Source of the DNA: Kiritimatiellia bacterium
GTDB taxonomy: Bacteria; Verrucomicrobiota; Kiritimatiellia; RFP12; UBA1067
Direction of reading: 5' to 3'
DNA length: 64,000 nt
Assembly (NCBI GenBank): GCA_017403825.1
Contig: JAFRDO010000014.1
Coordinates: 629-64,628 of the forward strand
The notes beneath the pieces are model-generated. The model was given only the letters and a program-made list of their open reading frames with translations. It ran no database searches and was not told where the DNA came from. Shown piece after piece: positions 7,855 to 38,543 of this stretch. Numbering within the stretch: position 1 is the first letter of the stretch; every line of letters begins with the position of its first letter. A program made the position numbers and the translations under genes.

Positions 7855-8064
7855 ATGGCAAGTTTCCTTGAAAGATCTAAGGGCGGCGTGATCTTCAAGA
7901 TGAAGGACGATCCGCGCATCACGAAGGTGGGCCGCTTCCTCAGGCGCACGAGCATGGACGGGCTGCGGAACGTGTTCATCGGCGACATGAGCCTCGTGGG
8001 GCCGCGTCTGCCCGTCCCGAGCGAAGTGGACAACCTATTTCACATAGGAGGTGGAATGGCATGA
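7855..8064 (+). pseudogene. Relic of a polyprenyl-phosphate sugar transferase (Bac_transf core only, 69 codons)
   Basis: The ORF contains [36 protein letters not shown]. The intact paralog at 43546..44877 has [38 protein letters not shown]. The relic lacks the PQL residues, all TM segments and the C-terminal part. Its stop overlaps the next start (ATGA). Confidence 0.55.
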
Positions 8065-11000: not shown

Positions 11001-11228
11001 GTGCCGGACATTGTCCTGACCGACATGTGGATGCCAAAGATGGATGGCTCGCAGCTCGCCGAGGCGATGCGCAAGGACGGGAGACTCTCGGAGATTCCCA
11101 TCGTCGCCATCACGGCAGACGTCGATGTGGGCGCCACGTACGACATAAGCCTTTTCGCAAAGGTCATCGCGAAGCCTGTCAACGGCGAGAAGCTTCGCGC
11201 CCTCTTTGGAGACATCGCATCGTCATGA
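8061..11228 (+). CDS. Hybrid sensor histidine kinase with two periplasmic solute-binding (SBP_bac_3 / Venus-flytrap-like) domains, TM, HisKA, HATPase_c, REC
   Basis: 1055 aa with a strong RBS AGGAGGTGG. N-terminal signal/TM, two SBP-like halves, TM segment [25 protein letters not shown]-box [35 protein letters not shown], and receiver [14 protein letters not shown]...[10 protein letters not shown]. Confidence 0.9.
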
Positions 11229-11440
11229 AACTGCTTGTTTCCAGCCTCCCTTACGATGGCGGCAAGAGCGACATCTCGGTCTATGTCCGGGAAGTCGTGC
11301 GGGCGTTGCTGGAGCGCGTCCCTCCCGTCATCTACGCCCCTCGCTGGACGCGCCGGCCGGGGAGGCTCTGGAAGCGGTATGCATACGGACTGGTCAAGTC
11401 TTCGTGGCTGTCCATAAGGACGGTCTGTGGAGGGTGCTAG
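11225..11440 (+). other. 71-codon ORF resembling the N-terminus of a GT4-type glycosyltransferase (possible gene relic)
   Basis: The ATG overlaps the kinase stop (ATGA). The product begins [31 protein letters not shown], like GT-B glycosyltransferase N-termini, then degenerates into Arg/Trp-rich sequence and stops. The resemblance is by eye only. Confidence 0.25.
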
Positions 11441-14292
11441 TGGAAAACACATCTTCAAAACGGCATCTATCGGCATTCGCCGCATGGGCGTTCTCGTTCG
11501 GGACTGCGGTTGGTTGGGGCGCGTTCGTCATGCCCGGCACGACGTTCCTGCCGCTTGCCGGACCGTTGGGAACGGTCTTGGGCATCCTTGCGGGCGCGGC
11601 GGTCATGATAATCCTTGCATGGAATTACCACTACATGGTTCGCCGCATGCCGAGCACGGGGGGGACGTTCACGTTCGTCTTGCGAACGTTTGGTGGTGAC
11701 CACGGGTTCTTCTGCGCCTGGTTCCTATGCCTTTCCTACGTGGCTATCGTCTGGGCGAATGCGACCGCGTTGACGATTGTGGCACGATGTCTGTTCGGCG
11801 ATGCGCTTCGATTTGGATTCAGCTACAGCATAAAAGGTTTTGAGGTGTCGCTGGGCGACATCATGCTCTCGGTGGCGGCGATCGTGTCAGCAGCCGTCAT
11901 CTGCTGCCGGAGGCGCACGGCGGGAGGGGTGCAGGCTGTGCTCGCGACGATATTCGCGGTGGGCGTTGCCGTGTGCTTCGCCGCGAGTCTCTTCTGCCAC
12001 GGCGGTGGGCTACAGTCTATGGCGCCGGCGTTTTCACCTGACGGCGGGAAACCGCTCGCGCAGGTGTTGAAGATCGTCGCTCTTGCGCCGTGGTTCTTCG
12101 TGGGGTTCGAGTCCATCTGCCACCTCTCCAGGGAGTTCCGGTTCCCCCTGAAGCGGACGTTCGGCGTGCTGGCGGTTGCAATCGCCGCGTCCGTGGCCGC
12201 ATACGCGTTTCTCGCTCTGCTGCCCGTCCTGACGCCCAGCGCGGGCGGCGCGGACTGGGTCGATGGCCTCGCCCGCCTCGACCACGAGAAAGGCCGCCTC
12301 GCGCTGCCGACGCTTGAGGCTGTAAGCTGTACGCTGGGGAAAGCCGGAACCGCGCTTTTCGTCGCCACCATCCTCGGAGCCGTATTCACGAACCTCGTGG
12401 GCGACATGTTTGTCGCGAGCCGTCTGGTGTGCGCGATGTCGGACGAGCGCGTGTTCCCGGAATGGCTGGGGCGGCGCGATGGGAACGGCGAGCCGAGCCG
12501 CGCCATTTTCTTCCTTGCCGGGATCTCATGCCTCATCCCTCTGCTCGGTCGCACGGCGATCGGCTTCATCGTGGACGTGGCAACCGTCGGCACGGTGATC
12601 GCCTACGCCTATACCTCGGCGGCCGCTTTCCACCGCGCGCGTGCCGACGGCAACGGCCCCACGAAGGTGACCGGCGCGTGCGGCCTCCTGCTCTCCGTCG
12701 TCATCTTCGCCATCTTCATTGTACCGAACTACTTCTCTGGGACGATGATGTCCACGGAGTCGTATCTCATCCTCGTCCTATGGTGCATTCTCGGCTTCCT
12801 CTACTACCTCTACGTGCTCAGGCGGGACAACCTCCAGCGCTACGGGCGTTCGCTGGTCGTGTGGGTTGCCCTGATCGTGCTGATTCTCGTGATGTCGCAC
12901 ATGTGGATGCGCCAGGGAATGCACGAGGCGATGACGCGGGCGTTCGACTCAATCGGCAAGTTCCAGGACAGCGTGCCCGACGTCGACGCCGCCGTCCAGG
13001 ACGAGATGTGGAATGCACACCTGGACGGGCAGCTTGCGGACATGAACCGCTCGCTCGTGCAAAGCGGGCTTGTCCAGGCGGGCCTCATGATCGTGACGCT
13101 CGCCATCATGTTCACCCTGTTCACGATCGTGCGGCGCCACGAACGGCGCCTGGAGCGCGAAAAGGCGGCGGCCAAGAGCTACTTCTTCTCCACCGTGAGC
13201 CACGACATCCGCACGCCGCTCAACGCGATCATCGGCTACTCGGAGATGCTCAAGACGGGTCTGGACACCAAGGAGGAACGCGAGCAGGCCGTCGATTCGA
13301 TCCTCGTGAGCGGAAAGACACTTTTGGGACTCGTCAACGACGTGCTGGACCTGTCGAAACTCGAGTCCGGAAAGATGAAGATCGCCCCGGAGCCCACGGA
13401 CTGCCCGCGTCTCCTCCACGGCGTCATGGACGCCTTTCGCATCTCGGGCAAGAAGCCGGGGCTGGAGCTGCGCTGCGAAATCGGGGAGATGCCCGCGCTG
13501 ATGTTCGACCCGCAACGCCTAAGGCAGATCGTGTTCAATCTCGTCGGCAACGCCGTCAAGTTCACGGAGATGGGCCATGTGACGCTACGCGCCGACTACG
13601 AATGTGCAAAGGACGCCGAGACGGGCGTGTTCAGCCTGTCGGTCGAGGACACTGGCTGCGGCATCTCCGAAGAGGACCAGAAGCGCATTTGCTCGGCATA
13701 CGTGCAAGTGGGTTCAAAGCTCGCGCGCAACGGCGGCACGGGGCTCGGCCTCTCCATCTGCAAACAGCTCGTGAAAGCCATGGGCGGCGAACTGAAGGTG
13801 AAGTCTGCCCTCGGGCAGGGCTCCACGTTTTCGGTGGACATACCCGATGTGAGGATGGAGGGGGCGGTGCCAGACGCGCAGGAGCACGTACCTCCCGTGC
13901 AGAAGGCGGTAGGGCCGCACCGCATCCTCCTCGTCGACGACTCGAAGATGAACCTCATGGTCCTCAAGGCGCTTCTGAAGAAGGCCGGCGACTACGAGAC
14001 CACGATGGCGATGGACGGGCAAGAGGCCTTGAAGCTTCTGGAGGAGTCTGACGCCAGGCCGTACGACCTTGTCCTCACAGACATGTGGATGCCGAACCTG
14101 GACGGCGAGGGGCTCGTGAAGAACATCCGCGCGAACGCGTCGCTCGCGTCGCTGCGCGTTCTCGTGGTGACGGCCGACGTGGAGGTCCGCGACAAGGCCG
14201 CCGAGATGGGATTCGATGGCATTCTCCTGAAGCCCGTCACACCTGATGCGCTCAAACAGACCTTGCTGGGGAAAGAGGGGGACGTAACGTGA
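11440..14292 (+). CDS. APC-superfamily permease-like 12-TM domain fused to HisKA-HATPase_c-REC (hybrid 'transceptor' kinase)
   Basis: The reading frame is that of ORF 11206..14292. The likely start is GTG 11440 (or 11434), after GGAGG at 11428..11432, by alignment with the paralog at 14289. N-terminus: RHLSAFAAWAFSFGTAVGWGAFVMPG... with multiple TM helices. Then SYFFSTVSHDIRTPLNAIIGYSEML, GTGLGLSICKQL, and receiver ILLVDDSKMNLMVL...TDMWMPNLDG. Confidence 0.85.
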   Translation: MENTSSKRHLSAFAAWAFSFGTAVGWGAFVMPGTTFLPLAGPLGTVLGILAGAAVMIILAWNYHYMVRRMPSTGGTFTFVLRTFGGDHGFFCAWFLCLSYVAIVWANATALTIVARCLFGDALRFGFSYSIKGFEVSLGDIMLSVAAIVSAAVICCRRRTAGGVQAVLATIFAVGVAVCFAASLFCHGGGLQSMAPAFSPDGGKPLAQVLKIVALAPWFFVGFESICHLSREFRFPLKRTFGVLAVAIAASVAAYAFLALLPVLTPSAGGADWVDGLARLDHEKGRLALPTLEAVSCTLGKAGTALFVATILGAVFTNLVGDMFVASRLVCAMSDERVFPEWLGRRDGNGEPSRAIFFLAGISCLIPLLGRTAIGFIVDVATVGTVIAYAYTSAAAFHRARADGNGPTKVTGACGLLLSVVIFAIFIVPNYFSGTMMSTESYLILVLWCILGFLYYLYVLRRDNLQRYGRSLVVWVALIVLILVMSHMWMRQGMHEAMTRAFDSIGKFQDSVPDVDAAVQDEMWNAHLDGQLADMNRSLVQSGLVQAGLMIVTLAIMFTLFTIVRRHERRLEREKAAAKSYFFSTVSHDIRTPLNAIIGYSEMLKTGLDTKEEREQAVDSILVSGKTLLGLVNDVLDLSKLESGKMKIAPEPTDCPRLLHGVMDAFRISGKKPGLELRCEIGEMPALMFDPQRLRQIVFNLVGNAVKFTEMGHVTLRADYECAKDAETGVFSLSVEDTGCGISEEDQKRICSAYVQVGSKLARNGGTGLGLSICKQLVKAMGGELKVKSALGQGSTFSVDIPDVRMEGAVPDAQEHVPPVQKAVGPHRILLVDDSKMNLMVLKALLKKAGDYETTMAMDGQEALKLLEESDARPYDLVLTDMWMPNLDGEGLVKNIRANASLASLRVLVVTADVEVRDKAAEMGFDGILLKPVTPDALKQTLLGKEGDVT

Positions 14293-17156
14293 ACAAAGGC
14301 ACCGTCAAATCTTCAATGCGGCATCTTTCGCTTCTGGGCGCGTGGGCGCTCGCCTTCGGCTGCGCCGTGGGTTCCGACGCCTTCGTCATGCCTTGGAACG
14401 ATTTCCTGCCAAAGGCCGGACCACTCGGCACGGTGATCGGCATATTCATCGGCGGGCTAGTCATGGCCGTTGTCGCATGGAACTTCCATTACATGATCAA
14501 CCGCCTGCCCGGACCGGGCGGTACGTATGCATACGCGGCGGAGGTTTTTGGCAACGACCATGGATTCCTCTGCGGCGTCTTTCTCGGATTTGCCTACTTG
14601 GCGATCGTCTGCCTTGACGTGACGGCGTTGGTGGTCGTGGCGCACTACACGTTGGGCGACGTATTCAGCTTCGGGTTCAGCTACACGATCGAGAAAAGCA
14701 ACGTCTACCTTGGCGACATTCTGCTCTCCGTCTTCGCCATTGCCGTTGCGTCGGTCATCTGCTGCCGTCATCGCCTTTCGGGCGTCGTGCAGATCGTGAT
14801 GGCGGTCGTCCTTGCCGCCGGTATTCTCGTGTGCTTCGTGTCGACGGCGCTGAACCACGACGGCGGATTCGGGACGATGGGCCCGGTTTTCGCTCCAAGC
14901 AACGGCAATGGCATTTTCCAGACCCTGAACATCCTCGCCATTGCGCCGTGGCTCTTCGTAGGTTTCGAGTCCATATCGAATTCGTCCTCGGAATTCCGTT
15001 TCCCCGTCAGCAAGTCATTCATGGTCATGCTCGCCGCGCTCGTCACGGCGGTGATTGCCTACGCGCTTCTGACCGCCATCCCGGTGCTCTCGTTCGGCGG
15101 AGCTTCTTCTGCCGGCTGGACTGGCGCCGTGGCCGATCTGGCCAACTCTGGAGTCGAGCCGGATTACCACGCATTTGACGTGGCCCGCCGGTTTCTTGGA
15201 AAGGCGGGCGGTGTAATCATCGGCGTGACGCTGGTATGCGCCATCTTCACGAACCTCGTCGGCAACACCGTCGCGGTGAGCCGCTTGGTGGCGGCGATGG
15301 CGGACGATGGCGCGTTGCCGTCGTTTCTTGGGGGGAGAAACGTAGACGGCGCCCCTCGCAATGCCGTTCTTGCCATTGCGGCGCTGGTTGCCCTCGTGGT
15401 GCCTCTCGGGCGGTCGGTCATCGGCGTGGTCGTGGACATCTCGATTCTCGGCGCGGCGGTGGCCTACGCCTACACCTCGGCTGCGGCGTTCAAGACCGCG
15501 CGCAAGGAAGGCAACAAGGGCACGCAGGTGACGGGACTCCTCGGGCTTGCGATTTCACTCGTGGTCATTTTCCTTTTCGTCATGCCGTTCGTTTCGCTCG
15601 ACACCACCATGATTGCGACGGAATCCTACCTCGTCCTGATCATCTGGTGCATTGCCGCGCTCGCCGCCTTCTTGGCCGTCTTCCATCGCGACAGTGCTCG
15701 CCGGTTCGGCAGGTCGCCCGTCGCGTGGATATCCATCTTCATCGTCATCATGCTCCTGTCTGCGATGTGGACGCGCCAGAAGACCCTCGAAACGACGGAT
15801 CAGGCGTTTGACACCATCATCAACCACCATGTCACGGCGTGCGAGGCCGGCGAGAAGGACGGCGGCGACTGGCGCACGATCCTGCGGACGAATCTGTCCC
15901 GTGTGAACAGCTCGATTTTCCACGGCAACCTCGTCCAGGGCGGGCTCAATCTCCTCGCCCTTGTCCTCATGTTTGGAATCTACTCCATCCTTCGCCGTCG
16001 GGAGCGCGATGCCGAGCGGGAGAAGTCCAAGGCAAAGAGCTACTTCTTCTCCACCGTCAGCCATGACATCCGCACGCCGCTCAATGCCATCGTGGGGTTC
16101 TCGGAGATGCTTGAATCCGGTTTCAAGACCGAAGCCGAGCGCAAGGAGGCGATTGACTCCATCGTGATGAGCAGCAAGACGCTACTGAGTCTTATCAACG
16201 ATGTGCTGGATCTGTCCAAGCTCGAATCTGGCAAGATGAAGATAGCCCTGGAGCCGACCGATTGCCCGAAGCTCATGCACAAGCTCTTAGAAGCATTCCA
16301 CGCCTTCAGGACAAATCCGGAGGTGAAGCTGCGCTACCGCGAGAGTCCCATGCCGAGGCTTATGTTGGACCCGCAGCGCATACGGCAGATCGTGTTCAAC
16401 CTCGTGGGTAACGCCCTGAAGTTCACGGAGAAGGGCCATGTGGAACTTCGAGCCTTGTATAGCCGCGCCAACGGTGCAAATACGGGTACGTTTCAAATAG
16501 AAGTCGAGGACACCGGTTGCGGCATTAGCGAGGACGACCTGAAAATTATCGGATCGGCATACGTGCAGGTGGACTCGCAACGTTCCAGACATGGCGGCAC
16601 TGGACTCGGGCTCGCCATCTGCAAGCAGCTCGCCATCGCCATGGGCGGCAAGCTCAAGGTGGAATCCACGCTGGGGAAAGGATCGACCTTCTCCATCGTA
16701 GTTCCCGGCGTCAGCGTTGCTGCGGCCGAATGCGCCGCTCAGGCGGAGACCTCAGAGAAATCCGTACCCGAAATCAAACACGCCGACTGGCCGAAACGCC
16801 TGCTGATCGTTGACGACTCGAAGATAAATCTCTTGGTCCTGAAGGCCCATCTGAAGAAATTGGGTGACTTCGACGTGGTAACGGCCAACGACGGGAAAGA
16901 GGCCCTAGACATATTATCGAGTCCCGAGACGAAGCCATTTGACCTCGTGATGACGGACATGTGGATGCCTAACTTGGACGGCGAGGGACTGGTCAGGGCA
17001 ATCCGACAGACACCATCTCTTGCAACCCTTCCAGTGCTAGCTGTAACTGCTGATGTGGAAGCCTGCGGCAAGGCTGCGGGAATGGGGTTCAGCGGCATTC
17101 TTCTCAAGCCTGTCACCATCGACACGCTTGGCAAGGCTCTTTCAGGTGGTTTGTGA
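14289..17156 (+). CDS. Second APC-permease-like - HisKA - HATPase_c - REC hybrid kinase (tandem paralog)
   Basis: 955 aa. The GTG start overlaps the previous stop (GTGA), with RBS GAGGGGGA. It is collinear with the previous protein over its whole length (e.g. FLPKAGPLGTVIGIFIGGLVMAVVAWNFHYM vs FLPLAGPLGTVLGILAGAAVMIILAWNYHYM). Confidence 0.9.
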   Translation: MNKGTVKSSMRHLSLLGAWALAFGCAVGSDAFVMPWNDFLPKAGPLGTVIGIFIGGLVMAVVAWNFHYMINRLPGPGGTYAYAAEVFGNDHGFLCGVFLGFAYLAIVCLDVTALVVVAHYTLGDVFSFGFSYTIEKSNVYLGDILLSVFAIAVASVICCRHRLSGVVQIVMAVVLAAGILVCFVSTALNHDGGFGTMGPVFAPSNGNGIFQTLNILAIAPWLFVGFESISNSSSEFRFPVSKSFMVMLAALVTAVIAYALLTAIPVLSFGGASSAGWTGAVADLANSGVEPDYHAFDVARRFLGKAGGVIIGVTLVCAIFTNLVGNTVAVSRLVAAMADDGALPSFLGGRNVDGAPRNAVLAIAALVALVVPLGRSVIGVVVDISILGAAVAYAYTSAAAFKTARKEGNKGTQVTGLLGLAISLVVIFLFVMPFVSLDTTMIATESYLVLIIWCIAALAAFLAVFHRDSARRFGRSPVAWISIFIVIMLLSAMWTRQKTLETTDQAFDTIINHHVTACEAGEKDGGDWRTILRTNLSRVNSSIFHGNLVQGGLNLLALVLMFGIYSILRRRERDAEREKSKAKSYFFSTVSHDIRTPLNAIVGFSEMLESGFKTEAERKEAIDSIVMSSKTLLSLINDVLDLSKLESGKMKIALEPTDCPKLMHKLLEAFHAFRTNPEVKLRYRESPMPRLMLDPQRIRQIVFNLVGNALKFTEKGHVELRALYSRANGANTGTFQIEVEDTGCGISEDDLKIIGSAYVQVDSQRSRHGGTGLGLAICKQLAIAMGGKLKVESTLGKGSTFSIVVPGVSVAAAECAAQAETSEKSVPEIKHADWPKRLLIVDDSKINLLVLKAHLKKLGDFDVVTANDGKEALDILSSPETKPFDLVMTDMWMPNLDGEGLVRAIRQTPSLATLPVLAVTADVEACGKAAGMGFSGILLKPVTIDTLGKALSGGL

Positions 17157-17191: not shown

Positions 17192-17692
17192 CTAATGGCT
17201 GCTGAGCAAGGCCTCTAAATCATTGCGGGTGGAGACGGAGGCAAGGCGGGATGCCATGTCGTCGGAAATGAGGCATCTGCACAATCGCGCCAGGAACTGA
17301 CGGTATCCCGCATGGTTGGGACTGGAGCAGACGATCACGACAAAGACGTGCGTTCTGGAACCGTCTATGGCGTTGAAATCAATCGAACAGCCATCTCGGA
17401 AAACGCCGATGCCCACAAGCAGCTTCTCCAATCCGGGAACGTATCCGTGCAGAATCGCAAAACCGTGCATTGCGGCGAAGCCGATGTCGCCCAGAGAGTG
17501 CGAAATGACGGTCGAGACCATGCCGTCAAGCTTGTCCATGGGCATGCCGTTCTTCTCGAAAACGGACGCGAGAACCTGGCGGACGGCGCCTTCGGCGGTC
17601 GTCTCGGTGATGTCGCAGACAACGGGAATGGAGTTGACGATCTTCTGCCACTCTGCATTGTCCATTGGAATGCCTTCGTTTGTATCGCTCAT
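17192..17692 (-). CDS. PTS EIIA type-2 (PtsN / EIIA-Ntr-like) domain protein
   Basis: The frame is that of ORF 17192..17707. ATG 17692 is preferred (RBS GGAGAAG). PTS_EIIA_2-like layout: GFAILHGYVPG (putative phospho-His), ...SIDFNAIDGSRTHVFVVIVCS..., C-terminal LISDDMASRLASVSTRNDLEALL. Confidence 0.6.
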   Translation of the reverse strand: MSDTNEGIPMDNAEWQKIVNSIPVVCDITETTAEGAVRQVLASVFEKNGMPMDKLDGMVSTVISHSLGDIGFAAMHGFAILHGYVPGLEKLLVGIGVFRDGCSIDFNAIDGSRTHVFVVIVCSSPNHAGYRQFLARLCRCLISDDMASRLASVSTRNDLEALLSSH

Positions 17693-17732
17693 TTGACTCT
17701 TCTCCATATTGTAGTTGTAGTTGAGTGTTGTA

Positions 17733-19547
17733 TTAGGGTTTGACGTCCGTATAGCCGCACAGCGCGCCCAGCGCCCAGTCGAGGGCGAAGAAGGAAACGC
17801 CCTTCAGGGCGTCCGCCGCCTCGAGCTGCGCACGCACGGAGTCCCGGTCGGGACTCGCCTCGTCCGCGCAGGCGGCAATTCCCGGGACGAGGGCGCACGC
17901 TGGCACCGCCGCCTTGCACAGCGCAAGGTCGCGTTTGAAGGCGATTGGGGACTCGGTGTAGATCATGGGCGAGACGAAATCCACCCACTCCTCCTTCACC
18001 CACCGGGGCCAGTCCTGGCCACGCTTCGCCGCCGCTTCGGGGGTGGGAAACACCGCAGCGGAAAGCGCGCAGCCCGGACGCGCGCGGCGAAACATCCGCG
18101 AGAAAGTCCGGACGAAAAGCGAGATGTCGTCCATCTTCTCGGCGGTCGCCTCCTCAGCGGACGGCACGCGCACGTAGTCGAGCTGGACGCCGACGACATC
18201 CTGCGGGATTGAATCCAGGAGTTCCTGCGCGCGCCTGCCGCGTGCTTCTCCGCCGTGAGGAACGGTCCACCGGCCGTCCGAAGACTGTTCGAACGCATTG
18301 AGCCAGAGATGGACGCCGACGCCCGCTTTGCCAGCCAGCCAGAAAAATCGCCTGACGCCTGTCTCCCCGGAGCCCAGCGCTTCGCGGCGGACGAAGAGCG
18401 CATTCAGGCCATGCCCCTTCATCCATTCCGGCAGCGCCGGCATTCCACCCGGAAAGCCGGGAGGATTCTGCAGCCATGCTCCGCGCAACTCGAACTTGGC
18501 GAGTTCCGTGACAGAGATGGGCTTCATGGGGCCAGGAGGATCCTGACAGGCCATGTTGGGCGACACCTTCTGGACGATACTCCTGAGATGCCTTGCCGCC
18601 GCAGGCGATGGAAGCGGCGGGATGTGCGAGAACCACGCACCGGCGGGCGTGAGCGTCACGGCCGGCGAACCGGCCGAGCCGTCGGGAGAGAGGAACCGGG
18701 CCACCACCTTGGCGGAAGCCGAGCCGTCGAAGAACGGCACGATGGTGTTGTCGGTGCGGTGGGGATATGGCGGAACGGCCTCGTCGAGGGGCTTGATGGC
18801 GCACCACGGCTGTCCGCCGTGCCAGGCGCCGGGCCGCAGGCCGAACGCCTCCGAGAGGACGGGGTCGGCCGAATAGTAGACGATGGCGCGGCCGCCTTTG
18901 CGAATAAACCCGGCGAGGAGCTCGGCATCGTCGGCGGGAAGCGACGAGGCATCAGGGACGATGACGAGCCGCGGGGCGGATTTCACGGCGGCGGAAACGG
19001 AAGGATAGAGGTCGCAATCAAGCCGGCTGCGGGAGAGCGTGGAGGCTACGCGGCGCGCAAGAGTTTCCATCCACGAGCCTGTCGGGCCCGACAGAACGGC
19101 GATTTCAGAGACGGGGGCGAGCGAGATGGAATTGACGACGAGCCTGCCCGCACCGGGCGAAGGCGAGCGCCACACGCTCACGCGCACCTCGCCTATCTTC
19201 GGCTCCTCGCCAACGGTCGGCACGAAGTTCCCGAACGGAACGCGCAGGCGCGACGTGGCGAGCGCGGCAGCGTCGACTTGGGCGGCGGCAAGCCAGTCGC
19301 CGCCGATTTTCAAGTGGAACGTTGCGGCCCTGACGGAAGCGGCCCCCTCGAAAAGCTTGATGTCGAGCGCGATGGCGCCCGCCGGCACGCCGGGGCGGGA
19401 TGGCATCGGCTTCACGTCCACGAAGGCCCGGTCCTCCGCCGTTTTCGCGAAGTCCCACTCGAGCGACGACACGGCGGCCGGCGCCACCAGGGCAGCAAGG
19501 GCGCAGGCGAGCGACAGGAGCCTTTCCATGGCCCTTTGGAAAATCAT
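17733..19547 (-). CDS. Secreted glycoside-hydrolase-like protein (GHL10 / DUF187-type TIM barrel at the C-terminus)
   Basis: ORF 17733..19553. ATG 19547 forms an ATGA overlap with the upstream stop (alternative ATG 19529). Signal peptide MERLLSLACALAALVAPAAVSS. The C-terminal half carries GHL10-like motifs (GLNALFV..., VGVQLDYVRVP, GQDWPRWVKEEWVDFVSPMIY). Confidence 0.65.
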   Translation of the reverse strand: MIFQRAMERLLSLACALAALVAPAAVSSLEWDFAKTAEDRAFVDVKPMPSRPGVPAGAIALDIKLFEGAASVRAATFHLKIGGDWLAAAQVDAAALATSRLRVPFGNFVPTVGEEPKIGEVRVSVWRSPSPGAGRLVVNSISLAPVSEIAVLSGPTGSWMETLARRVASTLSRSRLDCDLYPSVSAAVKSAPRLVIVPDASSLPADDAELLAGFIRKGGRAIVYYSADPVLSEAFGLRPGAWHGGQPWCAIKPLDEAVPPYPHRTDNTIVPFFDGSASAKVVARFLSPDGSAGSPAVTLTPAGAWFSHIPPLPSPAAARHLRSIVQKVSPNMACQDPPGPMKPISVTELAKFELRGAWLQNPPGFPGGMPALPEWMKGHGLNALFVRREALGSGETGVRRFFWLAGKAGVGVHLWLNAFEQSSDGRWTVPHGGEARGRRAQELLDSIPQDVVGVQLDYVRVPSAEEATAEKMDDISLFVRTFSRMFRRARPGCALSAAVFPTPEAAAKRGQDWPRWVKEEWVDFVSPMIYTESPIAFKRDLALCKAAVPACALVPGIAACADEASPDRDSVRAQLEAADALKGVSFFALDWALGALCGYTDVKP

Positions 19548-19891
19548 CGCCACACGTACACCTCGCCGTCATTGGCAGGCGCCTTGACGGACTGGCCCGT
19601 TGGATTGTCGGCGGCGACAACAGTTGCGGATGCCGGAACGGGCGTCTGGGCAGAGGTCGGCGCGGGCGTTGGAGCCGCTGCCGCAGGTTTCAGCGCGGCA
19701 AAGGGATTTTCCAGCCTTACGGGAGCGTGTTCGTCGCCCATGTTGCCGTTGTTCTTGATGATGCGGGCGGTCTCGCGCCGGTTGTTCCGGATGCGCGAGC
19801 GGATCGCGTTTACCAGCGCGCTCAGAAGGAAGATGGCGGCAAGAATGCCGAACACCAGATGGAAAAGGTCGTTCTGAAGCAAGTCCTCCAT
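19544..19891 (-). CDS. Small bitopic membrane protein with Pro/Ala-rich tail (ExeB/GspB-like by architecture)
   Basis: ATG 19891 is preceded by GAAGGAGGG. One TM (LFHLVFGILAAIFLLSALV), then a basic stretch, then AAAAPTPAPTSAQTPVPASA. It lies immediately after the ExeA-like gene and is tightly coupled to both neighbours. Confidence 0.5.
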   Translation of the reverse strand: MEDLLQNDLFHLVFGILAAIFLLSALVNAIRSRIRNNRRETARIIKNNGNMGDEHAPVRLENPFAALKPAAAAPTPAPTSAQTPVPASATVVAADNPTGQSVKAPANDGEVYVWR

Positions 19892-19896
19892 ATCGG

Positions 19897-20724
19897 TCAA
19901 CCCTCCTTCGGCGAGATGTCCACGTCCTCGGCCGCCTGCCGCACGATCGCGGCGTCTATTTCGGAAGCCTTGGCCACATAGCCGAGCATCAGCGCGGTGT
20001 CGCAGATGTTAGTGATGCTTCTGGGCACGCCGCCGGAAAGGCGGTAAAGCTCGGACAAGGCCTCTTGGTTGAAGATCCACATGTCGCCGCCCGCCGCCAT
20101 GACCTTGTGCTGGACGAACTCGATGGTCTCGGTGTGCGTGAGGGGGGCGAGCGTCCAGGTAAGCTGCACCCTGGCGCGCAGGGACTGGTAGGAACGCACC
20201 ATGTCCAGAAGCTCCGGAATGCCGGCCATGATGACCGTGGCGAGCTGCTGTTCGCGTCCGTCGCTGGAGGCCAGGCGCAGGTTGCTCAGGTAATGGATGA
20301 GATAGAGCCCGTCATCGTCACCAAGATACTGCGCCTCGTCGATGAGAATCGCGTGGCGTTTCAGGGCGCCCGGCTTGCGGGAGAGCTCCTGAAGCGTCAT
20401 GAGGCCGTCCGCGATCGAGGCGACCGTCCCCTTCACGCCCAGGCCGGCGATGACATGGCGAAGCAGCGCTAGGTGCCCCTTGGGGATGGCGTCGATGCGG
20501 ATGTACGGAATGTCTGACTGGGTGATGCGCTCGGCCAGGTTGGACAGGAGGAAGGACTTGCCCATGCCGAACTGACCGGTGAGGATGCCGGCGACCCTTC
20601 CTTCCGAAACCAGGTAGAAGAGCCGTGCCACGCCCTCCTCGAACTGGCTCGAGAGGTAGAGCTGCTTAGGGTTGTATGAGTTGACGAACGGCGCTTCCCT
20701 GAGGTTCCAATATTTTTTGTACAT
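19897..20724 (-). CDS. ExeA/GspA-family AAA ATPase (AAA_22)
   Basis: 275 aa. N-terminal YWNLREAPF motif typical of ExeA/MshM, Walker A GQFGMGKS, Walker B AILIDEAQYL, and the C-terminal GG(V/I)PR motif (SGGVPRSITNICD). Confidence 0.8.
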   Translation of the reverse strand: MYKKYWNLREAPFVNSYNPKQLYLSSQFEEGVARLFYLVSEGRVAGILTGQFGMGKSFLLSNLAERITQSDIPYIRIDAIPKGHLALLRHVIAGLGVKGTVASIADGLMTLQELSRKPGALKRHAILIDEAQYLGDDDGLYLIHYLSNLRLASSDGREQQLATVIMAGIPELLDMVRSYQSLRARVQLTWTLAPLTHTETIEFVQHKVMAAGGDMWIFNQEALSELYRLSGGVPRSITNICDTALMLGYVAKASEIDAAIVRQAAEDVDISPKEG

Positions 20725-20725
20725 G

Positions 20726-21694
20726 TCAATCTTCTTCCTTCATTGCGGTGGCAAACGAATATTTCGCGCGTTTTTTCGTTTCTGTCTCGGCGGCGGCGAA
20801 CGAGAATTTAGCACGGTCGCTCCTTTCGGGCACGGGCGCGGGGCTGGGCTTGGGCTGCGGCACGGAATGCGAAATCTGGCCGAGTATGGACTGCGTCATG
20901 TCCATAATCACCGGATCTGCCCCATGGGAGAAGGACTCCGCGGCCTCTGGCGCCTCCTTTCGTTCGGCAGAAGCCAGGAATTCGCCAGACGACGTTGGGA
21001 CAGCCTCGGGCTCCACGTCCTTCACGAACCCTTCCCGCGGCACGAACTTCAGCGGCATCTCGTATGGCAGGCGGACGTTCGCCGTCAGTCCCATGTAGGC
21101 TAGCACCTTCATGAAGTAGTTGCCCAGCCTGTCGCGGTGGAACTGGATCGCGACCGAGGACCTGTTCAACACCTCCCCCCACACCGTCTTCGCGGCGGCG
21201 GAGACTGGTTCCGGCAAGGCCACGATGGTGGTAAGCCCGGATTCTTCGAGTGTCGAGATGAATTCCGCGACGCGCTCTGGAGCGGCAGAAACAGGATGGA
21301 CTTCGAGCCAGGGTCGGGCGTCCTGGATGAAGAGGACGGACGCCGAGACGCGGTGGGCCTCCGCGATGATCTCCTCAATCGATTCCCTGACGGGCAGTGC
21401 CTCACCCGGCTTGTAGGCATGGTAGAGGGCCGAGAGAGCGCCGATTTCAGTGGCCTTCTCCAGATCGTAGCCGACTTCGCGCGCCCGCAGCGTGACATAG
21501 TCTTTGGACTCGGTGAAGACGGCCAGGACCTGCTCTTCCAGCCGGTAGTAACTGTTCAGTATCGTGCCCGCAGCCACTTCGCGGCCTTCGTTCGAGGCGC
21601 CCATCAGAAACGTCACGTGGCCGACGTAGATGCCGGAGAACTTGTCATCCAGCGCAGGAATCCCGATGGGAACCTTCATGATCCTCTTTGTCAT
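20726..21694 (-). CDS. KaiC/RecA-superfamily-like protein with degenerate Walker A and a disordered repeat tail
   Basis: 322 aa. KaiC-like N-terminus GIPALDDKFSGIYVGHVTFLMG, but the P-loop reads GASNEGRE instead of GxxGxGK(T/S). The C-terminal ~100 aa are low complexity and end with two RAK(F/Y)SFA(A/T)A repeats. Confidence 0.6.
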   Translation of the reverse strand: MTKRIMKVPIGIPALDDKFSGIYVGHVTFLMGASNEGREVAAGTILNSYYRLEEQVLAVFTESKDYVTLRAREVGYDLEKATEIGALSALYHAYKPGEALPVRESIEEIIAEAHRVSASVLFIQDARPWLEVHPVSAAPERVAEFISTLEESGLTTIVALPEPVSAAAKTVWGEVLNRSSVAIQFHRDRLGNYFMKVLAYMGLTANVRLPYEMPLKFVPREGFVKDVEPEAVPTSSGEFLASAERKEAPEAAESFSHGADPVIMDMTQSILGQISHSVPQPKPSPAPVPERSDRAKFSFAAAETETKKRAKYSFATAMKEED

Positions 21695-22537
21695 TTAGGC
21701 TCTCCTCCCCGCCGCCACGGCAGCTTCAAGCTCGCGCAGACGTTTCGCCATCGCGGTGATGTCCATCAGCGTGCCCACCACCATGTCGTGGCGAGCGCCC
21801 GAGCTCTTCATCAGCTCGCAGAAAAGCACGTCCACGCGGTCGGGCTTGAGCGAGTCGACCAGGATGGGTCCTCCGGAACCGGAATCAACCGCGTTCTTGA
21901 CAACCCCGTTGAAGAGCCCGGCGTTCTGCCCCACGACTTCCGCAAGCGTGAAGCCGACCGTCTGCGGGCAGCCGACCAGCGCGTTGAAGTGGCCGTTGGC
22001 ACGCACGATCTTCCCCGTAGCGGCGTCGACCGCGAAGACGGCGGCGGCGGTCCCCTCGAGGACGGCGTTGAGCTCCCCGCCCACGGAGGCGATGGCGGCG
22101 GCGGCGGCGCTTGCCCGCTCGCAGACGGACTTCACCAGCGCCAGCAGCACCTTTCCGTCGAATGGCTTGCCGATCACTTCCCACGCACCGCATTCATAGA
22201 GCTCTGTGACCGTCTGAAGATCGATGGCCGAGGCGGTCTCCACCACCACTGGCACCATATTGACGATGCCGCTTTCGCGCAGAAACTTCAGCACTTCCCA
22301 TCCGTCCACCTCCTGCATGACGAGGTCAAGTATGATGGCGGAGTAGTTGTACGCGCCCATGCGCAGCATCTCGATGGCTCGGGTGCCGTCCGAAGCCTCG
22401 TGAACCTCGAAGTCGTTCTGGAATATGCTGCGGACGATTGACCGCACGACATTCGAATCGTCGATGATCAGGATCGGGGGTTTCGCGCTCCTGCGGGCTA
22501 CATCATGCGTGCTGGGGTGATGACTTGGGATTATCAT
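21695..22537 (-). CDS. Response regulator: receiver domain + PAS-like domain (no DNA-binding output)
   Basis: 280 aa. ILIIDDSNVVRSI...AIILDLVMQEVDG...GKPFD (intact receiver residues), then a PAS-like region (AAVFAVDAATGKIVRANGHFNALVG...). Confidence 0.8.
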   Translation of the reverse strand: MIIPSHHPSTHDVARRSAKPPILIIDDSNVVRSIVRSIFQNDFEVHEASDGTRAIEMLRMGAYNYSAIILDLVMQEVDGWEVLKFLRESGIVNMVPVVVETASAIDLQTVTELYECGAWEVIGKPFDGKVLLALVKSVCERASAAAAAIASVGGELNAVLEGTAAAVFAVDAATGKIVRANGHFNALVGCPQTVGFTLAEVVGQNAGLFNGVVKNAVDSGSGGPILVDSLKPDRVDVLFCELMKSSGARHDMVVGTLMDITAMAKRLRELEAAVAAGRRA

Positions 22538-22800
22538 AGGTATGTTCCTTTACCATGTCGTGGATAATCGGAGTTGCGTCAGAAATGGCTTAAGAGGTAG
22601 AGAAGCACCATGTGGTCAATGTAGGACCTCATGGCCAGGATGTCGAATTCCACCGAAACCGTCAGCCAGTCGGTGATGTCGTAGCTGTAGAGGCCGCCAA
22701 AGCCCCAGATGGCCTTCCAGTCGGTGTCTAGGTCGTATACGGACCTGAAGGAAGATGAGGGGATGGAAGAGGATTCTTCGGAGGAGTCGGAGGATTCCTT

Positions 22801-22836
22801 GGCTCTCTCAATCTCCCTGGCTCTCTCAATCTCCCG
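22801..22836 (-). repeat. 18-bp tandem duplication (2 copies, 1 mismatch) inside the barrel-coding part
   Basis: GGCTCTCTCAATCTCCCT followed by GGCTCTCTCAATCTCCCG. In frame it encodes the AREIER AREIER duplication. Confidence 0.9.
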
Positions 22837-23400
22837 GGCGACGTTCTTGTCGTCCAGCGAAAAGCCTCCGCGCCCGTCGCTCTTAGCGAAGCCGCCAACG
22901 ATGTCGGCCCGGAACCGCATCTTGTCCGAATCCGTCTCGTAGCGCAGCACGCCCAGCGCGCGCTTGTCCCAGTAGGGCGTCCAGTAGAAGTCGCTGGCTT
23001 CGCTCGTCGTGGTGGTGTTGAATCTCAGGCCGTACCAAACCGTCGGCATGGACTCGGAGGACCACATGGACTCGAGGTTTATGAAGTACATCGCGTTGTC
23101 GTCACTGTAGGTCCAGTACTGCGTACGACCGGACAGCTTCCAGTAGTCGGACGGCAGCCACTCAGCCATGAGGGCGAGGGAGTCGTACGTGACGTCCTTT
23201 ACGGCCGAGGCCACGTAGTCGTGGTCGAAGAGCGACATGACGGAGAAATTGTCCTCGGGGTTCCACCGGGCACCGAAGGAAAACACCACCTCGTCGTTCC
23301 TGCGCATCGGCGTGAAGATGCCGCTGTTGCGGTGATCCTGCAGGTTCGCGTAATCCACGTACGCGTAGCTGCCGGAGTAGTCGGGCTTGCGCGCCGACAG

Positions 23401-23408
23401 CCCCCCCC
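23401..23408. repeat. Homopolymer C8 (G8 on the coding strand) at the frameshift site
   Basis: Read directly: ...gccgacag cccccccc gagccg.... Confidence 0.95.
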
Positions 23409-26404
23409 GAGCCGAAGAGAAACACCCCGGAATCGAGGCGCCAGTTCATGCCCAAGCGCCAGTCGTCGGTGTCGGCCTTGAACTTGTATATCGACTCCCC
23501 GTAGGTCACGTCGGTCATCGTCCGCGCGTTCCAGTAGGGCCGGACGGTCTGCTTGATCTCGCCCTTGTGGTATTCGCCGTACAGACCGACCCGGTCGTTC
23601 CAGTTGGCCCCGGCCTTCCCGCCGTACCTGACGATCTCCACCTGGTCGTTGGCCTTGGTGTGGGAGATGTCGATCTGCCCGTAGGGATGGGCGGGATCGA
23701 ACCAAGGCTTTTCCTTCTCCTCGGACATCTGCCACTCGAGCTCCGACTCGCGCAAGTTGCCCGCGACCTGCTTCGCCCCCACGTCTTCGCCAGGATCGTT
23801 CCGGCGGATCGTCGTGTCGTTGCGGTCGTCGCGCTCCGCGTCGTGCGCGGACGTCCCGCCCGAGACCGTCTCCAGCAATGGGCGCATGCTGGCGGAGACG
23901 CGGTTGCGGAAGCGGTGGCGGATATTGTAGTCAAGCTTGGTGCACAGGTCTTCGGGATAGCCGTCCTTGCGCAGGCTGGCCACGATCTTGTTCGCCTCGT
24001 TCGGCTGGTTGAGGAGCATCGCCAGCTCGGCGCGCATCCGGCGGCCGAGGAAGTAGGGATGGAACTCATAGGCGTGCCGGACGACGTCCTCGCCCTCGTC
24101 CGCCCAGCCGGGCTCGTAGCGGCGCGCGATCATCGGGTCGTCGCCGGTCACGGTGAAGCCGGTGGTGCTCTGCACGAAGCCGAGGCTATAGGAGCAGGCG
24201 GCCTCGGAGATGATGCTGTCGCTGATCGAGCGCTTGGCGCTGATGTTGCACGCGCCAACCTGCCCCACCGAACCGAGGGGGTAGGCCACCATGGCCACGG
24301 CACAGTCGTTCGAGCCCATCTCCCTGCGGATCTTAGCGCGGCTATCGCGGAACTCGTGGCGTATGCGCCGGTCCCATTCGTTCATCGACTCGATCCGGTT
24401 GCGGTCGGCCTTCCACAGGCGGTTGTACAGAGGGTCTCGCATGTCGTCGCCCTCCTTGTCCACGGGCGCCTTCTTGTCGCCGGAGCGGAGCGAGGATCCG
24501 ACGATCCAGTTGCCGGTGTCGGCGTACTGGCGTATCTCATCCCACCCAGGCCTGCTTGGCTCGAAAGATTCCGGTTCATCGGATGGGGTGAACAGCGCGA
24601 AAGGAACGCCGAACTCCTCCGCGACACGGGTGCCCAGCACCATTTGCGAGCGGCGGGCGGTGTCGAACGTCACCGCGAAGGTCAACCGGGGGCCAAAGGA
24701 ATCCTCGTCATCCATGCCTTCTTCGTCCTCGTCGCCGGCATCGTCGTCTTCATCCTGCCCGGATCGCTTGCGCGCGCGGGCCTTTCCCGTCTCCTGAGTT
24801 TTCTTCTTGAGGTAATGCCGGCCCGTGATCATCCAGCCGATATGGTCGAAGAACTTCGCCGGGAGAGGCGCTTCCTCCTCGTCATCCTGCTCGTCGACGA
24901 GATGCCGCACTTTCCGGCGACCGTCCTTGGCGTTTTTTGCGGGGTTCCTCGCGGCGCCGATGATCCGGGGGATCTCGTCCGCCGATACCAGCTCCCAGCC
25001 GGCTCGCTGCAGCGAACGGATGTGCTCCGTCAGGCGTCTCACGCTCGTCTGCGGCATCCAGTCGCTCTCGGTGAGGTTGGAGTACTTGAGCGTCAACACG
25101 GAGCCCTTCGAACCCGCCTCTTCGAGCCGTTTCGCCTCCGCCAACGCCTTGGCGTATTCGCCCTGTGCGGAATAGAGGCGCGCGCGGTAGTAGTGTATCA
25201 TCGGGTCGTCGCGGTCGAAATACTTGAACCACTCGCGCAGGACGCGCTGCGCGGCATCGAAGTTCCGCTCCTTGACCTCCACCTCGAAGAGCATCGCAAG
25301 CGCCCGCACGTCCTGGTGGTTGTACTTGAGCAGGACGTCCTCGATCTGGCTGCGGCAGATGTTCAACCGATCGGACTGGTAGCAAAGCTCGGCCAGGAGC
25401 TCGCGCGCCTGCATGTTCAGGGGATCGGCCTCGACCGCCTCCTGCAGCCAGTCGATGATCGTGTCGGTCTTGTAGCGCTCGGGGTTGTCCCGGTTGATGG
25501 CCACACACCGGCCCGCGAGCCGGGTGAGGTACTCCGCGCGCATGAGGCGGTTGGTGGTCGCCTCGATAAGCGTCATGAGCGGGGTCACGTCCTCCTGGCC
25601 CGAGATCTCCGCGATATCGGCCCGGAGCCGCATGGCCGCCATGTTATCGGGATCCAGCTCGAGAATCTCCCGGCAAAGGCGGTCGGCTTTCTCCAGCTCG
25701 CCCACCCGCAGCTCCAGCGTGGCCTGCTCGAGTTTTATGAGGGGGTTGTCCGAGACGAGTTCCGCGATGTCGTGGTATATCTTGAGCGACTCCTCGTCCT
25801 GAAAGCGGTTCGCAAGCATCTGGGCGTAGGTGCGCTGGATGTCGACGCGGTCGGGGTTCTCCTTGACGAGCCCCTTCAAAACCGCTTCGGACTCCTCGAT
25901 CTCGCCCAGTCGCATCAGGTTCTGCGCGAACGAGTATTTGAGGTCGTAGTCCCGCGGATTGATGGCAAGGGCCTTGCGGAAGGCCTCGTCCGCCTTCACC
26001 CAGTCCTTCTCGAGGATCTCGTACTGCGCGACGAGCGCGTGGGGCTTGGCCTTCTCGGGCATCAGGTCGCGCATCCGGAACCACAGGTCGCGTGCGCGTT
26101 TCTGCTGGCCGGTCCGCACGTAGCACCAGCCGAGGCCCTCCCAGCCGGCCTCCAGCGCGGGGTCGCGCGAGATAGCCTCCTCCAGGTAGGGGATGGCATC
26201 GGCGAACTCCTCCTCCTGAACGCGCTCGAGTCCGTGATACAGGAGCGCCTGGGCGGGCGTTACCTCCGAGACGTCCGTCCGGCGGGACTCTTCGATCACG
26301 CGATTGAACTCGTCCTGGATGGTAGCGGCGCAAGCCGAACCGGCGGCCAGGAGCAGCGCCATCGCGATTGTCCGTCCAATTATCCTCATCGTGCCTCCTG
26401 CGGG

Positions 26405-27139
26405 TTACTTCTTGTCGGGCCAGTAGGTCCTTAGCACGTCCTCCGCGACGACTTTCGCGCCAGGGAAGGTCAGGTGGATGCCGTCCGTGTCGCGCACCGT
26501 GACCGCCGTACCCGTCTTGGAGATGATGGTCTGGGTGTAGCGTCCCGGCCGGATCGTGAGCACCTTGCCCATGTCGTACCTGTGGAACCGGTCACGGTAC
26601 TTCTCGTCGCCCGCAATCTCGGCGACGATGCCGGCGACGAGCTGCAAGTGCTGATCGTTGGTCTCGGACCTCATCGGCGGCGTAAGCATCCACACGATGT
26701 GGGTTACGCCGCTCGCGTAGAGGGCGTCGAGAAGCTCCTCGATGCGGCACTTGTACTCGACGCGCCACTCGTCCGTCCCCACCACGGCCATGCTGCCCGT
26801 ACGGCTCTCGAGGCTCTGCCTGTCGTTCGTACCCAGAGAGATGAACGCTGTCTTCGGCTTTATCCGCCCGCAGAGTTCCTTTGCCTTCGACGGCCAGTTG
26901 AAGACCGACGGCCGGGCAAGTCCGGAACCGAGCGACGAGAATGACTCGGCCGGGGTCACTTCCTTCGCCTTGAAGGCCTTCTCCATGCCCTTGCCGAGCA
27001 TCTTCATCATCGAGTCGCCGATGAAAACGACGGGCGTGTCGAGCTTGACCGGCTCCCCAATCTTCGGAGTGTCCGTCTCCGCGCCAGTCGCCGTAATCGC
27101 CGCCATCAGGACGGCCGCAGCCATGAGTCTCCTTGTCAT
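26405..27139 (-). CDS. Periplasmic SGNH/GDSL-family hydrolase/acyltransferase (DUF459-like; AlgX/AlgJ/PatB-type role)
   Basis: The frame is that of ORF 26405..27160. ATG 27139 is preferred (RBS AAGGAAGG). Signal peptide MTRRLMAAAVLMAAITATGA. SGNH blocks: FIGDSM, SLGSGL, ISLGTNDRQ, DTDGIHLT. Confidence 0.7.
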   Translation of the reverse strand: MTRRLMAAAVLMAAITATGAETDTPKIGEPVKLDTPVVFIGDSMMKMLGKGMEKAFKAKEVTPAESFSSLGSGLARPSVFNWPSKAKELCGRIKPKTAFISLGTNDRQSLESRTGSMAVVGTDEWRVEYKCRIEELLDALYASGVTHIVWMLTPPMRSETNDQHLQLVAGIVAEIAGDEKYRDRFHRYDMGKVLTIRPGRYTQTIISKTGTAVTVRDTDGIHLTFPGAKVVAEDVLRTYWPDKK

Positions 27140-27172
27140 TTTACCTTCCTTGTTTTTCATTGCATGTTTTTG

Positions 27173-27433
27173 TTATTGCGGGTCATCCTTCTGGTCGAGC
27201 CACCGCCCGCGAACGCACGCGGCTCCCCGGCGGAGAAAATCAAGCCGGAGCATCGCCGAGAGACGTGCGACAGGACGCACGAGCGACTTCGTCGCGTCGC
27301 GGGCAACTCCGTAGTCCATGTTCTCGGCGTTCTTCTCCATCGCCGGCGCGTTCATGAGCACCGCAAGCGCGTAGAACACGGCAAGGCCGGCCGCCGCCCG
27401 CCAAGTCGCATTTTTTCCTTCAGAGTCCTTCAT
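27173..27433 (-). CDS. Small membrane protein between the MBOAT and SGNH genes
   Basis: ATG 27433 is preceded by GAGGGAGG. There is one hydrophobic segment (AAAGLAVFYALAVLM). Its position matches the small partner proteins of MBOAT systems (positional inference only). Confidence 0.45.
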   Translation of the reverse strand: MKDSEGKNATWRAAAGLAVFYALAVLMNAPAMEKNAENMDYGVARDATKSLVRPVARLSAMLRLDFLRRGAACVRGRWLDQKDDPQ

Positions 27434-27446
27434 GTCCACGCCTCCC

Positions 27447-37600: not shown

Positions 37601-37601
37601 T

Positions 37602-38522: not shown

Positions 38523-38529
38523 AGGTTCT

Positions 38530-38538: not shown

Positions 38539-38543
38539 TACTT

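Follow-up and report, generated by a model that had tools for sequence, protein, structure and literature searches.

Cytoplasmic accessory regulators of synthase-dependent exopolysaccharide (EPS) systems are already known. In bacterial cellulose production, the BcsE/F/Q/R proteins bring together a RecA/KaiC-like domain whose Walker A motif is degenerate, a receiver domain (REC*), an ATPase and a small membrane recruiter, which act jointly on the cellulose synthase (PMC7439463). Within type II secretion systems (T2SS), a typical GspA (the counterpart of ExeA) carries a C-terminal transmembrane (TM) segment with periplasmic C39-like and peptidoglycan-binding domains, and the tail of its partner GspB is also periplasmic (PMC9239104). 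Short ExeA-like AAA+ ATPases recur in EPS loci, with no mechanism assigned to them in the literature that we searched. In the archaellum, ArlH (FlaH) is a single KaiC-like domain with a P-loop and impaired catalysis; its gene adjoins that of the hexameric ATPase ArlI, of which it is the proposed modulator. Here we describe a cassette of four genes in a 64,000-nt stretch of DNA from a Kiritimatiellia bacterium (GenBank assembly GCA_017403825.1, contig JAFRDO010000014.1, positions 629 to 64,628 of the forward strand), hereafter the window, in whose own numbering all coordinates are given. The cassette occupies 19544-22537 on the minus strand and encodes a receiver (REC) protein, a KaiC-like protein, an AAA_22 ATPase and a small TM protein.

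The reading that we favour, with a probability of roughly one half, is that the four genes encode a control or assembly module, cytoplasmic and tethered to the membrane. It would serve a Pga-like synthase-dependent EPS machine, specific to the Planctomycetes-Verrucomicrobia-Chlamydiae (PVC) group, that would make an O-acetylated N-acetylglucosamine (GlcNAc) polymer. Three of the four proteins are soluble and the fourth is a single-pass membrane protein. All four superfamilies were known before, as was the presence of ExeA-like ATPases in EPS loci (TIGR03015). What is new, by the literature searched, is that the four genes form a fixed cassette, confined to the PVC group and paired with a Pga-like operon for an acetylated EPS, and that the KaiC-like protein has lost its P-loop in a lineage-specific manner. 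An earlier note on this DNA had taken such a module to be undescribed, and our searches of the literature (on the cassette, on ExeA-like ATPases in EPS loci and on the EPS of Kiritimatiellota) likewise found no description of it.

A four-gene cassette conserved in PVC bacteria

The REC gene (21695-22537, 280 aa), the KaiC-like gene (20726-21694, 322 aa), the ATPase gene (19897-20724, 275 aa) and the small TM gene (19544-19900) follow one another on the minus strand with intergenic gaps of 0-1 nt. The small protein is 118 aa long if read from a TTG codon and 115 aa if read from the ATG at 19888, which is the start picked by the gene caller in a 99%-identical contig. The stop codon of the small gene overlaps the start of the following hydrolase gene (17733-19547) in the sequence ATGA. 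The cassette is real and tightly coupled, and is co-transcribed within a longer minus-strand operon. The order of that operon is: a family 2 glycosyltransferase (GT2), a PgaB-like protein with tetratricopeptide repeats (TPR), an MBOAT protein, an 88-aa open reading frame (ORF), a DUF459/SGNH protein, a TPR exporter, the four cassette genes, a GHL10/DUF4015-like protein and an EIIA-like protein.

Homologues are of metagenomic origin and bear Kiritimatiellae or Kiritimatiellia names. When one genome per species was scanned with the motif hhhD[TS]hhPW, 45 loci were recovered, on which local hidden Markov models (HMMs) and ORF clustering were then used. All 45 lie in the PVC group (Kiritimatiellia, Lentisphaerae, Victivallales and Verrucomicrobia). 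The same motif was found in every one of the ~85 distant cluster representatives (22-34% identity) that an exhaustive profile search with the KaiC-like protein returned. Around the KaiC-like gene, a REC gene lies upstream in ~40 of the 45 loci and an AAA_22 gene downstream in ~38, and at least 30 have a small TM ORF whose product ends in Y[VI]W[ED]. Where a locus has at least 5 kb on both flanks, the GT2, large TPR, MBOAT, DUF459 and TPR-porin genes are adjacent in 15 of 18 cases, often in divergent orientation. These data show that REC, KaiC-like, AAA_22 and small TM genes form a conserved PVC cassette, usually beside the same EPS genes, and they uphold the proposal of the earlier note that the four genes form a single unit linked to a synthase-dependent polysaccharide system.

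The cassette can also be found in parts. In one Victivallales metagenome-assembled genome, the ATPase gene stands alone inside the EPS operon between two TPR genes (locus L008) and the REC-KaiC pair lies elsewhere (L043). From this split arrangement, the ATPase appears to be the cassette part most closely tied to the EPS genes, and REC-KaiC looks like a separable input pair. In three rearranged loci (L046, L050 and L052), it is with the hydrolase, TPR and GT2 genes, and not with the ATPase gene, that the small gene has remained. Two other assignments were considered and set aside. A TniB-like role in transposition was rejected because the window has no transposase or integrase adjoining the cassette, whose synteny extends across phyla; anti-phage defence was rejected because PADLOC gave only a 16.5-bit P-loop match to mad8.

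Domain content of the four proteins

The REC protein matches Response_reg (PF00072) at 72.4 bits, against a cutoff of 30.2, with the receiver at residues ~20-140. The pocket residues D26, D27, D71, T101 and K124 are conserved among homologues, with D26, D27, D71 and K124 invariant, and a profile search of the protein found no DNA-binding or enzymatic output domain; on both counts the earlier description of a receiver with intact phospho-acceptor residues and no DNA-binding output is borne out. The same description had made this a REC-PAS protein. The REC part of that name stands, by the profile match and by a confident REC fold from AlphaFold2 (AF2), whereas the PAS part scored below cutoff with three models (PAS_8, 19.5 versus 21.8; PAS, 18.6 versus 22.6; PAS_9, 16.2 versus 27 bits). 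The PAS_9 alignment, although below cutoff, spans positions 4-103 of the 103 in the model, and a PAS identity for the C-terminal 140 aa is plausible. AF2 modelled this region at pLDDT <50 from a shallow alignment in which all homologues are ≥81% identical. The ~140-aa extension is confined to the clade of the window; the other PVC cassettes have a bare REC of 120-150 aa. Residues 186-260 (21698-22120, minus strand) also gave weak sequence matches in the PDB to a segment of bacterial L-lactate dehydrogenase (E 3e-4 to 1e-2). They are the sole PDB sequence matches in that region, and we treat them as chance.

The KaiC-like protein matches PF06745 at 27.3 bits (cutoff 26.6), and its relatives score 36-78 bits. 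A phmmer search of the PDB returned KaiC at 1.6e-8, with GASNEGRE aligned over GTSGTGKT and FTES over FEES. AF2 gives a confident core for residues 1-225 (pLDDT >90) followed by a disordered Pro-rich tail, and the top structural match of the model in Foldseek is the CI domain of KaiC (E 1e-15, target-normalised TM-score ~0.8). These results confirm a single-domain KaiC/RecA fold of ~225 aa and agree with the earlier assignment of a KaiC fold with the P-loop sequence GASNEGRE.

That P-loop departs from the Walker A consensus GxxxxGK[ST] in that Arg stands in place of Lys and Glu in place of Thr. G32, G37, R38 and E39 are nevertheless invariant in 22 homologues of 74-93% identity, and >100 related clusters retain full-length ORFs. 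Almost all PVC cassette members have the canonical GxxxxGK[ST], the exceptions being the clade of the window (GA[ST]xEGRE) and L005 (GRHGTEKS); library searches also turned up sub-clades of the KaiC-like family with SGTS or SGRD variants. The description 'pseudo-KaiC' hence suits the clade of the window and not the family at large, and the motif distribution points to a derived state specific to this gut clade. The catalytic Glu pair of KaiC (FEES) is lacking throughout: the window protein keeps one Glu (FTES) and the other cassette members read LLS..., with no Glu. The double-domain autokinase architecture of KaiC is also absent from the single-domain window protein. No member has the Glu pair, and even those with a canonical P-loop probably bind nucleotide or act as switches instead of hydrolysing it fast.

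The ATPase matches AAA_22 at 56.1 bits and contains both a Walker A (GQFGMGKS) and a Walker B motif (ILIDEAQ). These, together with an Arg motif, the sensor-2/GxPR motif and the N-terminal MYxxYWxLxxxPF, are conserved in ~45 loci, by which the protein can be classed as a soluble AAA+ protein of the ExeA superfamily whose catalytic motifs are intact. Its top NCBIfam match, TIGR03015, reaches 124.7 bits, or ~40% of the 324.5-bit cutoff, with an alignment over positions 1-267 of 269; a sequence search of the PDB gave matches only at the level of the P-loop. In a single pairwise comparison (window versus L001), the dN/dS ratio of the ATPase gene (0.18) was the lowest in the cassette, compared with ~0.5 for the KaiC core and ~0.6 for REC. 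By this measure the ATPase is the most constrained member, and the receiver and KaiC-like regulators evolve faster than the ATPase, yet still under constraint (dN/dS <1). The nearest relatives of the ATPase outside the PVC group are found in signalling contexts and none is in a T2SS or secretin locus. They include FHA-AAA_22 fusions, one of which adjoins an FHA-guanylate cyclase (L056). A further relative is encoded in a chemosensory cluster (CheA/CheW/CheR/CheB) with a PatA-type response regulator, where it is placed between the CheA and CheW genes (L057). A 651-aa library protein, P0263, joins a canonical KaiC-like domain and Pro-rich tail to a complete AAA_22 protein very similar to that of the window, and lends weak 'Rosetta-stone' support to a pairing of the two.

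The small protein (19544-19888 when read from the ATG) has a single TM segment at residues ~12-30 followed by a Pro/Ala-rich tail. Across 31 distinct homologues, the mean charge on the N-terminal side of the helix is ~0 and that of the 15 residues after it is +3.8. With a basic cluster C-terminal to the TM segment in all of these homologues, the positive-inside rule predicts an N-out/C-in topology and therefore a cytoplasmic tail. The tail holds short conserved motifs: KPYxVxNP[YF], FRQF and a C-terminal Y[VI]WE (Y[VI]W[ERD]). The tail of the KaiC-like protein also ends in short motifs, tandem [KR][YF]SF in the window and a conserved [IV][RK]F[SA] across PVC genomes. Short motifs between Pro-rich linkers, as in both tails, are what one would expect of docking peptides.

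The exopolysaccharide operon and its surroundings

All genes of the operon lie on the minus strand. It opens with a processive GT2 synthase (32941-34488) that matches Chitin_synth_2 and Glycos_transf_2 and is similar to NodC (146 bits) and PgaC/IcaA (119 bits), both below cutoff; no PilZ domain was found in this protein. Next come a protein of 1373 aa in which a PgaB-like N-deacetylase region is combined with TPR repeats (28931-33052; TIGR03938 PgaB, 70 bits, below cutoff) and an AlgI/DltB-like membrane O-acyltransferase of the MBOAT family (27447-29012; MBOAT 115.5 bits; DltB 169 bits, below cutoff). A small conserved ORF (27173-27439, 88 aa) is 85% identical to a 93-aa gene in L001; its ORF cluster (c12) recurs at the same place, between MBOAT and DUF459, in other loci. 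The DUF459/SGNH protein (26405-27160; DUF459 148.8 bits) resembles the O-acetyltransferase partners PatB and AlgJ. The exporter (22579-26389) combines TPR repeats with a C-terminal outer-membrane part and has sub-threshold PrsT-, BcsC- and PgaA-like matches.

In the window, the exporter gene is split into ORFs of 1075 and 259 aa by a +1 frameshift at a minus-strand run of eight G (23401-23408). Its orthologue is intact as a 1244-aa ORF in L001, which reads GGCGGGGG at this site, and measures 1244-1284 aa across L001 and L005. The frameshift could be an assembly error, phase variation or the mark of a pseudogene. The remaining genes of the operon are intact.

Downstream of the cassette, the product of the hydrolase gene (17733-19547) is a secreted, putative glycoside hydrolase with weak GHL10 and DUF4015 matches. 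This gene (cluster c5) directly follows the small gene in many loci and moves with it upon rearrangement. The last gene of the operon (17192-17707) encodes a protein similar to EIIA(Ntr) of the phosphotransferase system (PTS_EIIA_2, 31.8 bits). It is present only in the gut clade of the window (L001, L002 and L055), which also has the PAS-like extension and the degenerate P-loop. Their joint gain in the degenerate-P-loop clade would fit a rewiring of the inputs to the cassette.

Four hybrid histidine kinases (HisKA-HATPase-REC) are encoded on the plus strand, head-on to the end of the operon (3938-7159, 8061-11228, 11206-14292 and 14289-17156). One has a GAF domain and at least one is fused to a membrane domain similar to amino-acid permeases. 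Directly upstream of the GT2 gene (34683-36508, minus strand) are a homologue of the LpxC-family deacetylases and a short-chain dehydrogenase, and then FabG-, FabD- and EamA-like genes (36869-39422). These LpxC-like, Fab and EamA genes may modify the sugar-nucleotide substrate, or may be unrelated lipid genes. A second polysaccharide locus, of the Wzy type, lies at 43546-46682 and 48385-57264 (minus strand) and encodes a priming transferase (Bac_transf) and a Wzy_C-like protein. Beside it are two giant proteins, 1371 and 1567 aa long, that gave Calx-beta, PPC and thioredoxin-like matches. A GH20 beta-hexosaminidase gene is found at 59698-61284 (plus strand), ~25 kb from the operon, which is similar to those for poly-N-acetylglucosamine (PNAG). 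GH20 is the family of the PNAG-degrading enzyme dispersin B.

Proposed function, rival readings and known systems

With the linkage and domain content as a basis, we infer the binding partners and the action of the ATPase as follows. A histidine kinase would phosphorylate D71 of the receiver, the four hybrid kinases adjoining the operon being candidates. The receiver would then act on the KaiC-like protein, which in most lineages would be a nucleotide-binding switch. In the lineage of the window it may instead be a nucleotide-blind scaffold, to which the PAS-like domain and the EIIA-like protein have been added as alternative inputs. The KaiC-like protein would modulate the ExeA-type AAA+ ATPase, for which the action of single-domain ArlH on the ArlI ATPase offers a precedent. 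The N-out/C-in small protein would recruit the complex to the inner membrane near the GT2 synthase through the short motifs of its cytoplasmic tail, the role that BcsF has for BcsE; that of PgaD/IcaD for PgaC/IcaA is comparable. ATP hydrolysis by the AAA+ protein would promote assembly or activation of the synthase/export complex, and this step would replace the cyclic di-GMP (c-di-GMP)/PilZ control that the GT2 synthase lacks.

Put together, these steps describe a PNAG-like synthase run without c-di-GMP. A phospho-receiver and a KaiC-like switch would gate an ExeA-type ATPase, docked by a tail-anchored adaptor, that assembles or activates a trans-envelope EPS machine; in gut Kiritimatiellae the switch would have turned into a scaffold blind to nucleotides and been rewired to inputs of the PAS-like and EIIA-like kind. 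We regard this full scheme as possible but less likely than not.

Several observations weigh against a dedicated EPS module. In four loci from wastewater Kiritimatiellia (L006, L007, L010 and L011), the cassette comes after a cluster for CsgG-like lipoproteins and for proteins of 800-900 aa and unknown function, and not after an EPS operon. In L042 it has no clear partner, its neighbours being SpoIIE-GAF and SNF2 genes. REC-KaiC pairs without the ATPase occur beside housekeeping genes in L043, L051 and L053. The kinase neighbourhood is not kept in L001, and no Hpt domain was seen. The topology of the small protein is a prediction whose sole basis is the positive-inside rule. P0263 is a lone fusion and could be a read-through, by loss of a stop codon, or an assembly error. 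Finally, the dN/dS values of ~0.5-0.6 for the KaiC-like and REC genes would indicate relaxed constraint, and with its exporter frameshifted the EPS system may be off in this genome.

The exceptional loci could be explained by a general-purpose PVC signalling or positioning module, i.e. one that passes two-component output through ATPases and can be plugged into various envelope machines or targets, so that the link to EPS is not intrinsic. The CsgG-like neighbours fit this idea, as do the SpoIIE-GAF and SNF2 genes of L042, the Che and FHA contexts of the ATPase relatives outside the PVC group and the genes downstream of the REC-KaiC pairs, which are topoisomerase VI in L051 (and probably L053) and isocitrate dehydrogenase in L043. 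We nonetheless consider it unlikely, although likelier than the other rivals: the same EPS genes recur in most of the well-flanked loci, the ATPase gene is part of the EPS operon even where REC-KaiC has a separate location, and translational coupling links the small gene and the hydrolase gene to the cassette.

The earlier note had gone further in its reading of the ATPase and the small protein, as an ExeA/ExeB (GspA/GspB)-type pair in an ATP-driven, phosphorylation-controlled assembly or gating device for a polysaccharide conduit; such a pair would help the TPR/beta-barrel exporter to cross peptidoglycan or insert through it. The superfamily is the right one, with AAA_22, GQFGMGKS, ILIDEAQ and an ExeA-like N-terminal motif all present. 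A small bitopic protein follows the ATPase as in gspAB, and the genes come directly after that of the porin. Moreover, the periplasmic part is missing from some GspA proteins, and E. coli has a small GspB without the HR domain (PMC9239104). The ATPase of the window is not a canonical GspA, however: profile and sequence scans of its 275 aa found no TM segment, PG_binding_1 or C39-like domain, in contrast to E. coli GspA with its TM segment, GspA_C39-like and PG_binding_1 domains. BLASTP against E. coli GspA gave no significant alignment of the AAA domain, the best segment (E 0.022) lying outside it.

For the small protein, the single TM segment and Pro/Ala tail are as had been described. The periplasmic placement of the tail and the GspB architecture are disfavoured by the flank charges, which predict the side of the membrane opposite to that of the GspB tail, and by the missing HR domain: three homologues scanned against Pfam gave no match at E≤1, T2SSB/HR (PF16537) included, and BLASTP against E. 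coli GspB found no significant similarity (E 0.02). That the small gene moves with the hydrolase gene, and not the ATPase gene, in rearranged loci also argues against such a pair. Scans of the large ORFs of the window, and of the genes adjoining the cassette in the 45 loci, showed no secretin, T2SS or type IV pilus/MSHA gene. With no secretin there and no HR domain, membership of a T2SS or MSHA system was rejected. The observations that the earlier note had itself named as fatal to its module, namely a grouping of its ATPase gene with T2SS/MSHA loci together with a nearby secretin gene, and a KaiC call below the HMM cutoff, were thus not made. Insertion of the porin through peptidoglycan is a different matter: the four proteins have no periplasmic or peptidoglycan-binding domain, the tail is predicted to be cytoplasmic and there is no T2SSB/HR match. 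This was the least supported part of the earlier interpretation, and we regard an ExeAB-type pair as improbable.

A decaying, non-functional locus in this genome would account for the exporter frameshift, the dead P-loop of the KaiC-like protein and the relaxed constraint on REC and KaiC, but is very unlikely. The frameshift falls in a homopolymer, as assembly errors and phase variation typically do, and every other operon gene is intact; the GASNEGRE loop has invariant residues, and related clusters have full-length ORFs; and the dN/dS values remain <1, with 0.18 for the ATPase.

For an EPS control or assembly module, the cassette supplies a short ExeA-like ATPase with three fixed partners and a defined EPS machine, and it thereby turns the role of such ATPases into a testable question. 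If the full scheme above is true, this would be the first role assigned to the short soluble ATPases of this kind in EPS loci. The cassette would also show how the matrix is switched on and off, apparently without c-di-GMP/PilZ logic, in a large and poorly studied group of bacteria from the gut, rumen, wastewater and sediment. The canonical and degenerate KaiC-like P-loops in otherwise identical cassettes provide a natural pair for the change of a RecA-fold NTP switch into a scaffold.

Among known systems, ExeA/GspA-ExeB/GspB (and MshM of MSHA pili) resembles the cassette in having an ATPase of the AAA_22/ExeA superfamily with the same N-terminal motif, then a single-pass protein, and in its link to an outer-membrane channel. 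It differs in the TM and C39-like/peptidoglycan-binding regions of its ATPase, in its HR domain and secretin/T2SS genes, and in the side on which the tail is placed. ArlH is alike in its single KaiC-like domain; there, the partner ATPase belongs to the secretion-ATPase superfamily instead of AAA_22, the setting is not that of bacterial PVC genomes, and the P-loop Lys and Thr missing from the window protein mark a further difference. The best-scoring curated family is the XrtA/PEP-CTERM ATPase family TIGR03015, whose members are short, soluble and ExeA-like and are found in EPS loci with TPR proteins (PrsT); the TPR proteins of the window also match PrsT best. In contrast to that system, the EPS genes of the window are synthase-dependent and Pga-like, no exosortase or PEP-CTERM components were seen among the window ORFs scanned, and REC and KaiC-like partners are not part of the TIGR03015 system.

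The EPS machine itself resembles PgaABCD/IcaADBC. The NodC/PgaC, PgaB and PgaA/PrsT models gave the highest scores for the GT2 protein, the deacetylase and the TPR porin, respectively, and a small membrane protein accompanies the synthase as PgaD/IcaD does. The scores are nevertheless below the equivalog level, and the window proteins are much larger and fused, with an added MBOAT/DUF459 pair and a GHL-type hydrolase. The machine also has no PgaD homologue or c-di-GMP element.

For the cassette as a whole, BcsE/F/Q/R appears to be the closest functional parallel. The likeness would be one of architecture and function, as no GIL/BcsE, BcsQ or BcsF family was among the Pfam and NCBIfam matches of the cassette proteins at E≤0.01. 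The cassette ATPase is AAA+ (AAA_22) where that of Bcs is SIMIBI/MinD-like, its receiver keeps the phospho-acceptor residues where REC* is degenerate, and it has no GGDEF*/c-di-GMP site and carries its domains on separate proteins. What the two would share is the general plan: a cytoplasmic accessory of a synthase-dependent EPS system in which a small membrane polypeptide recruits the soluble parts.

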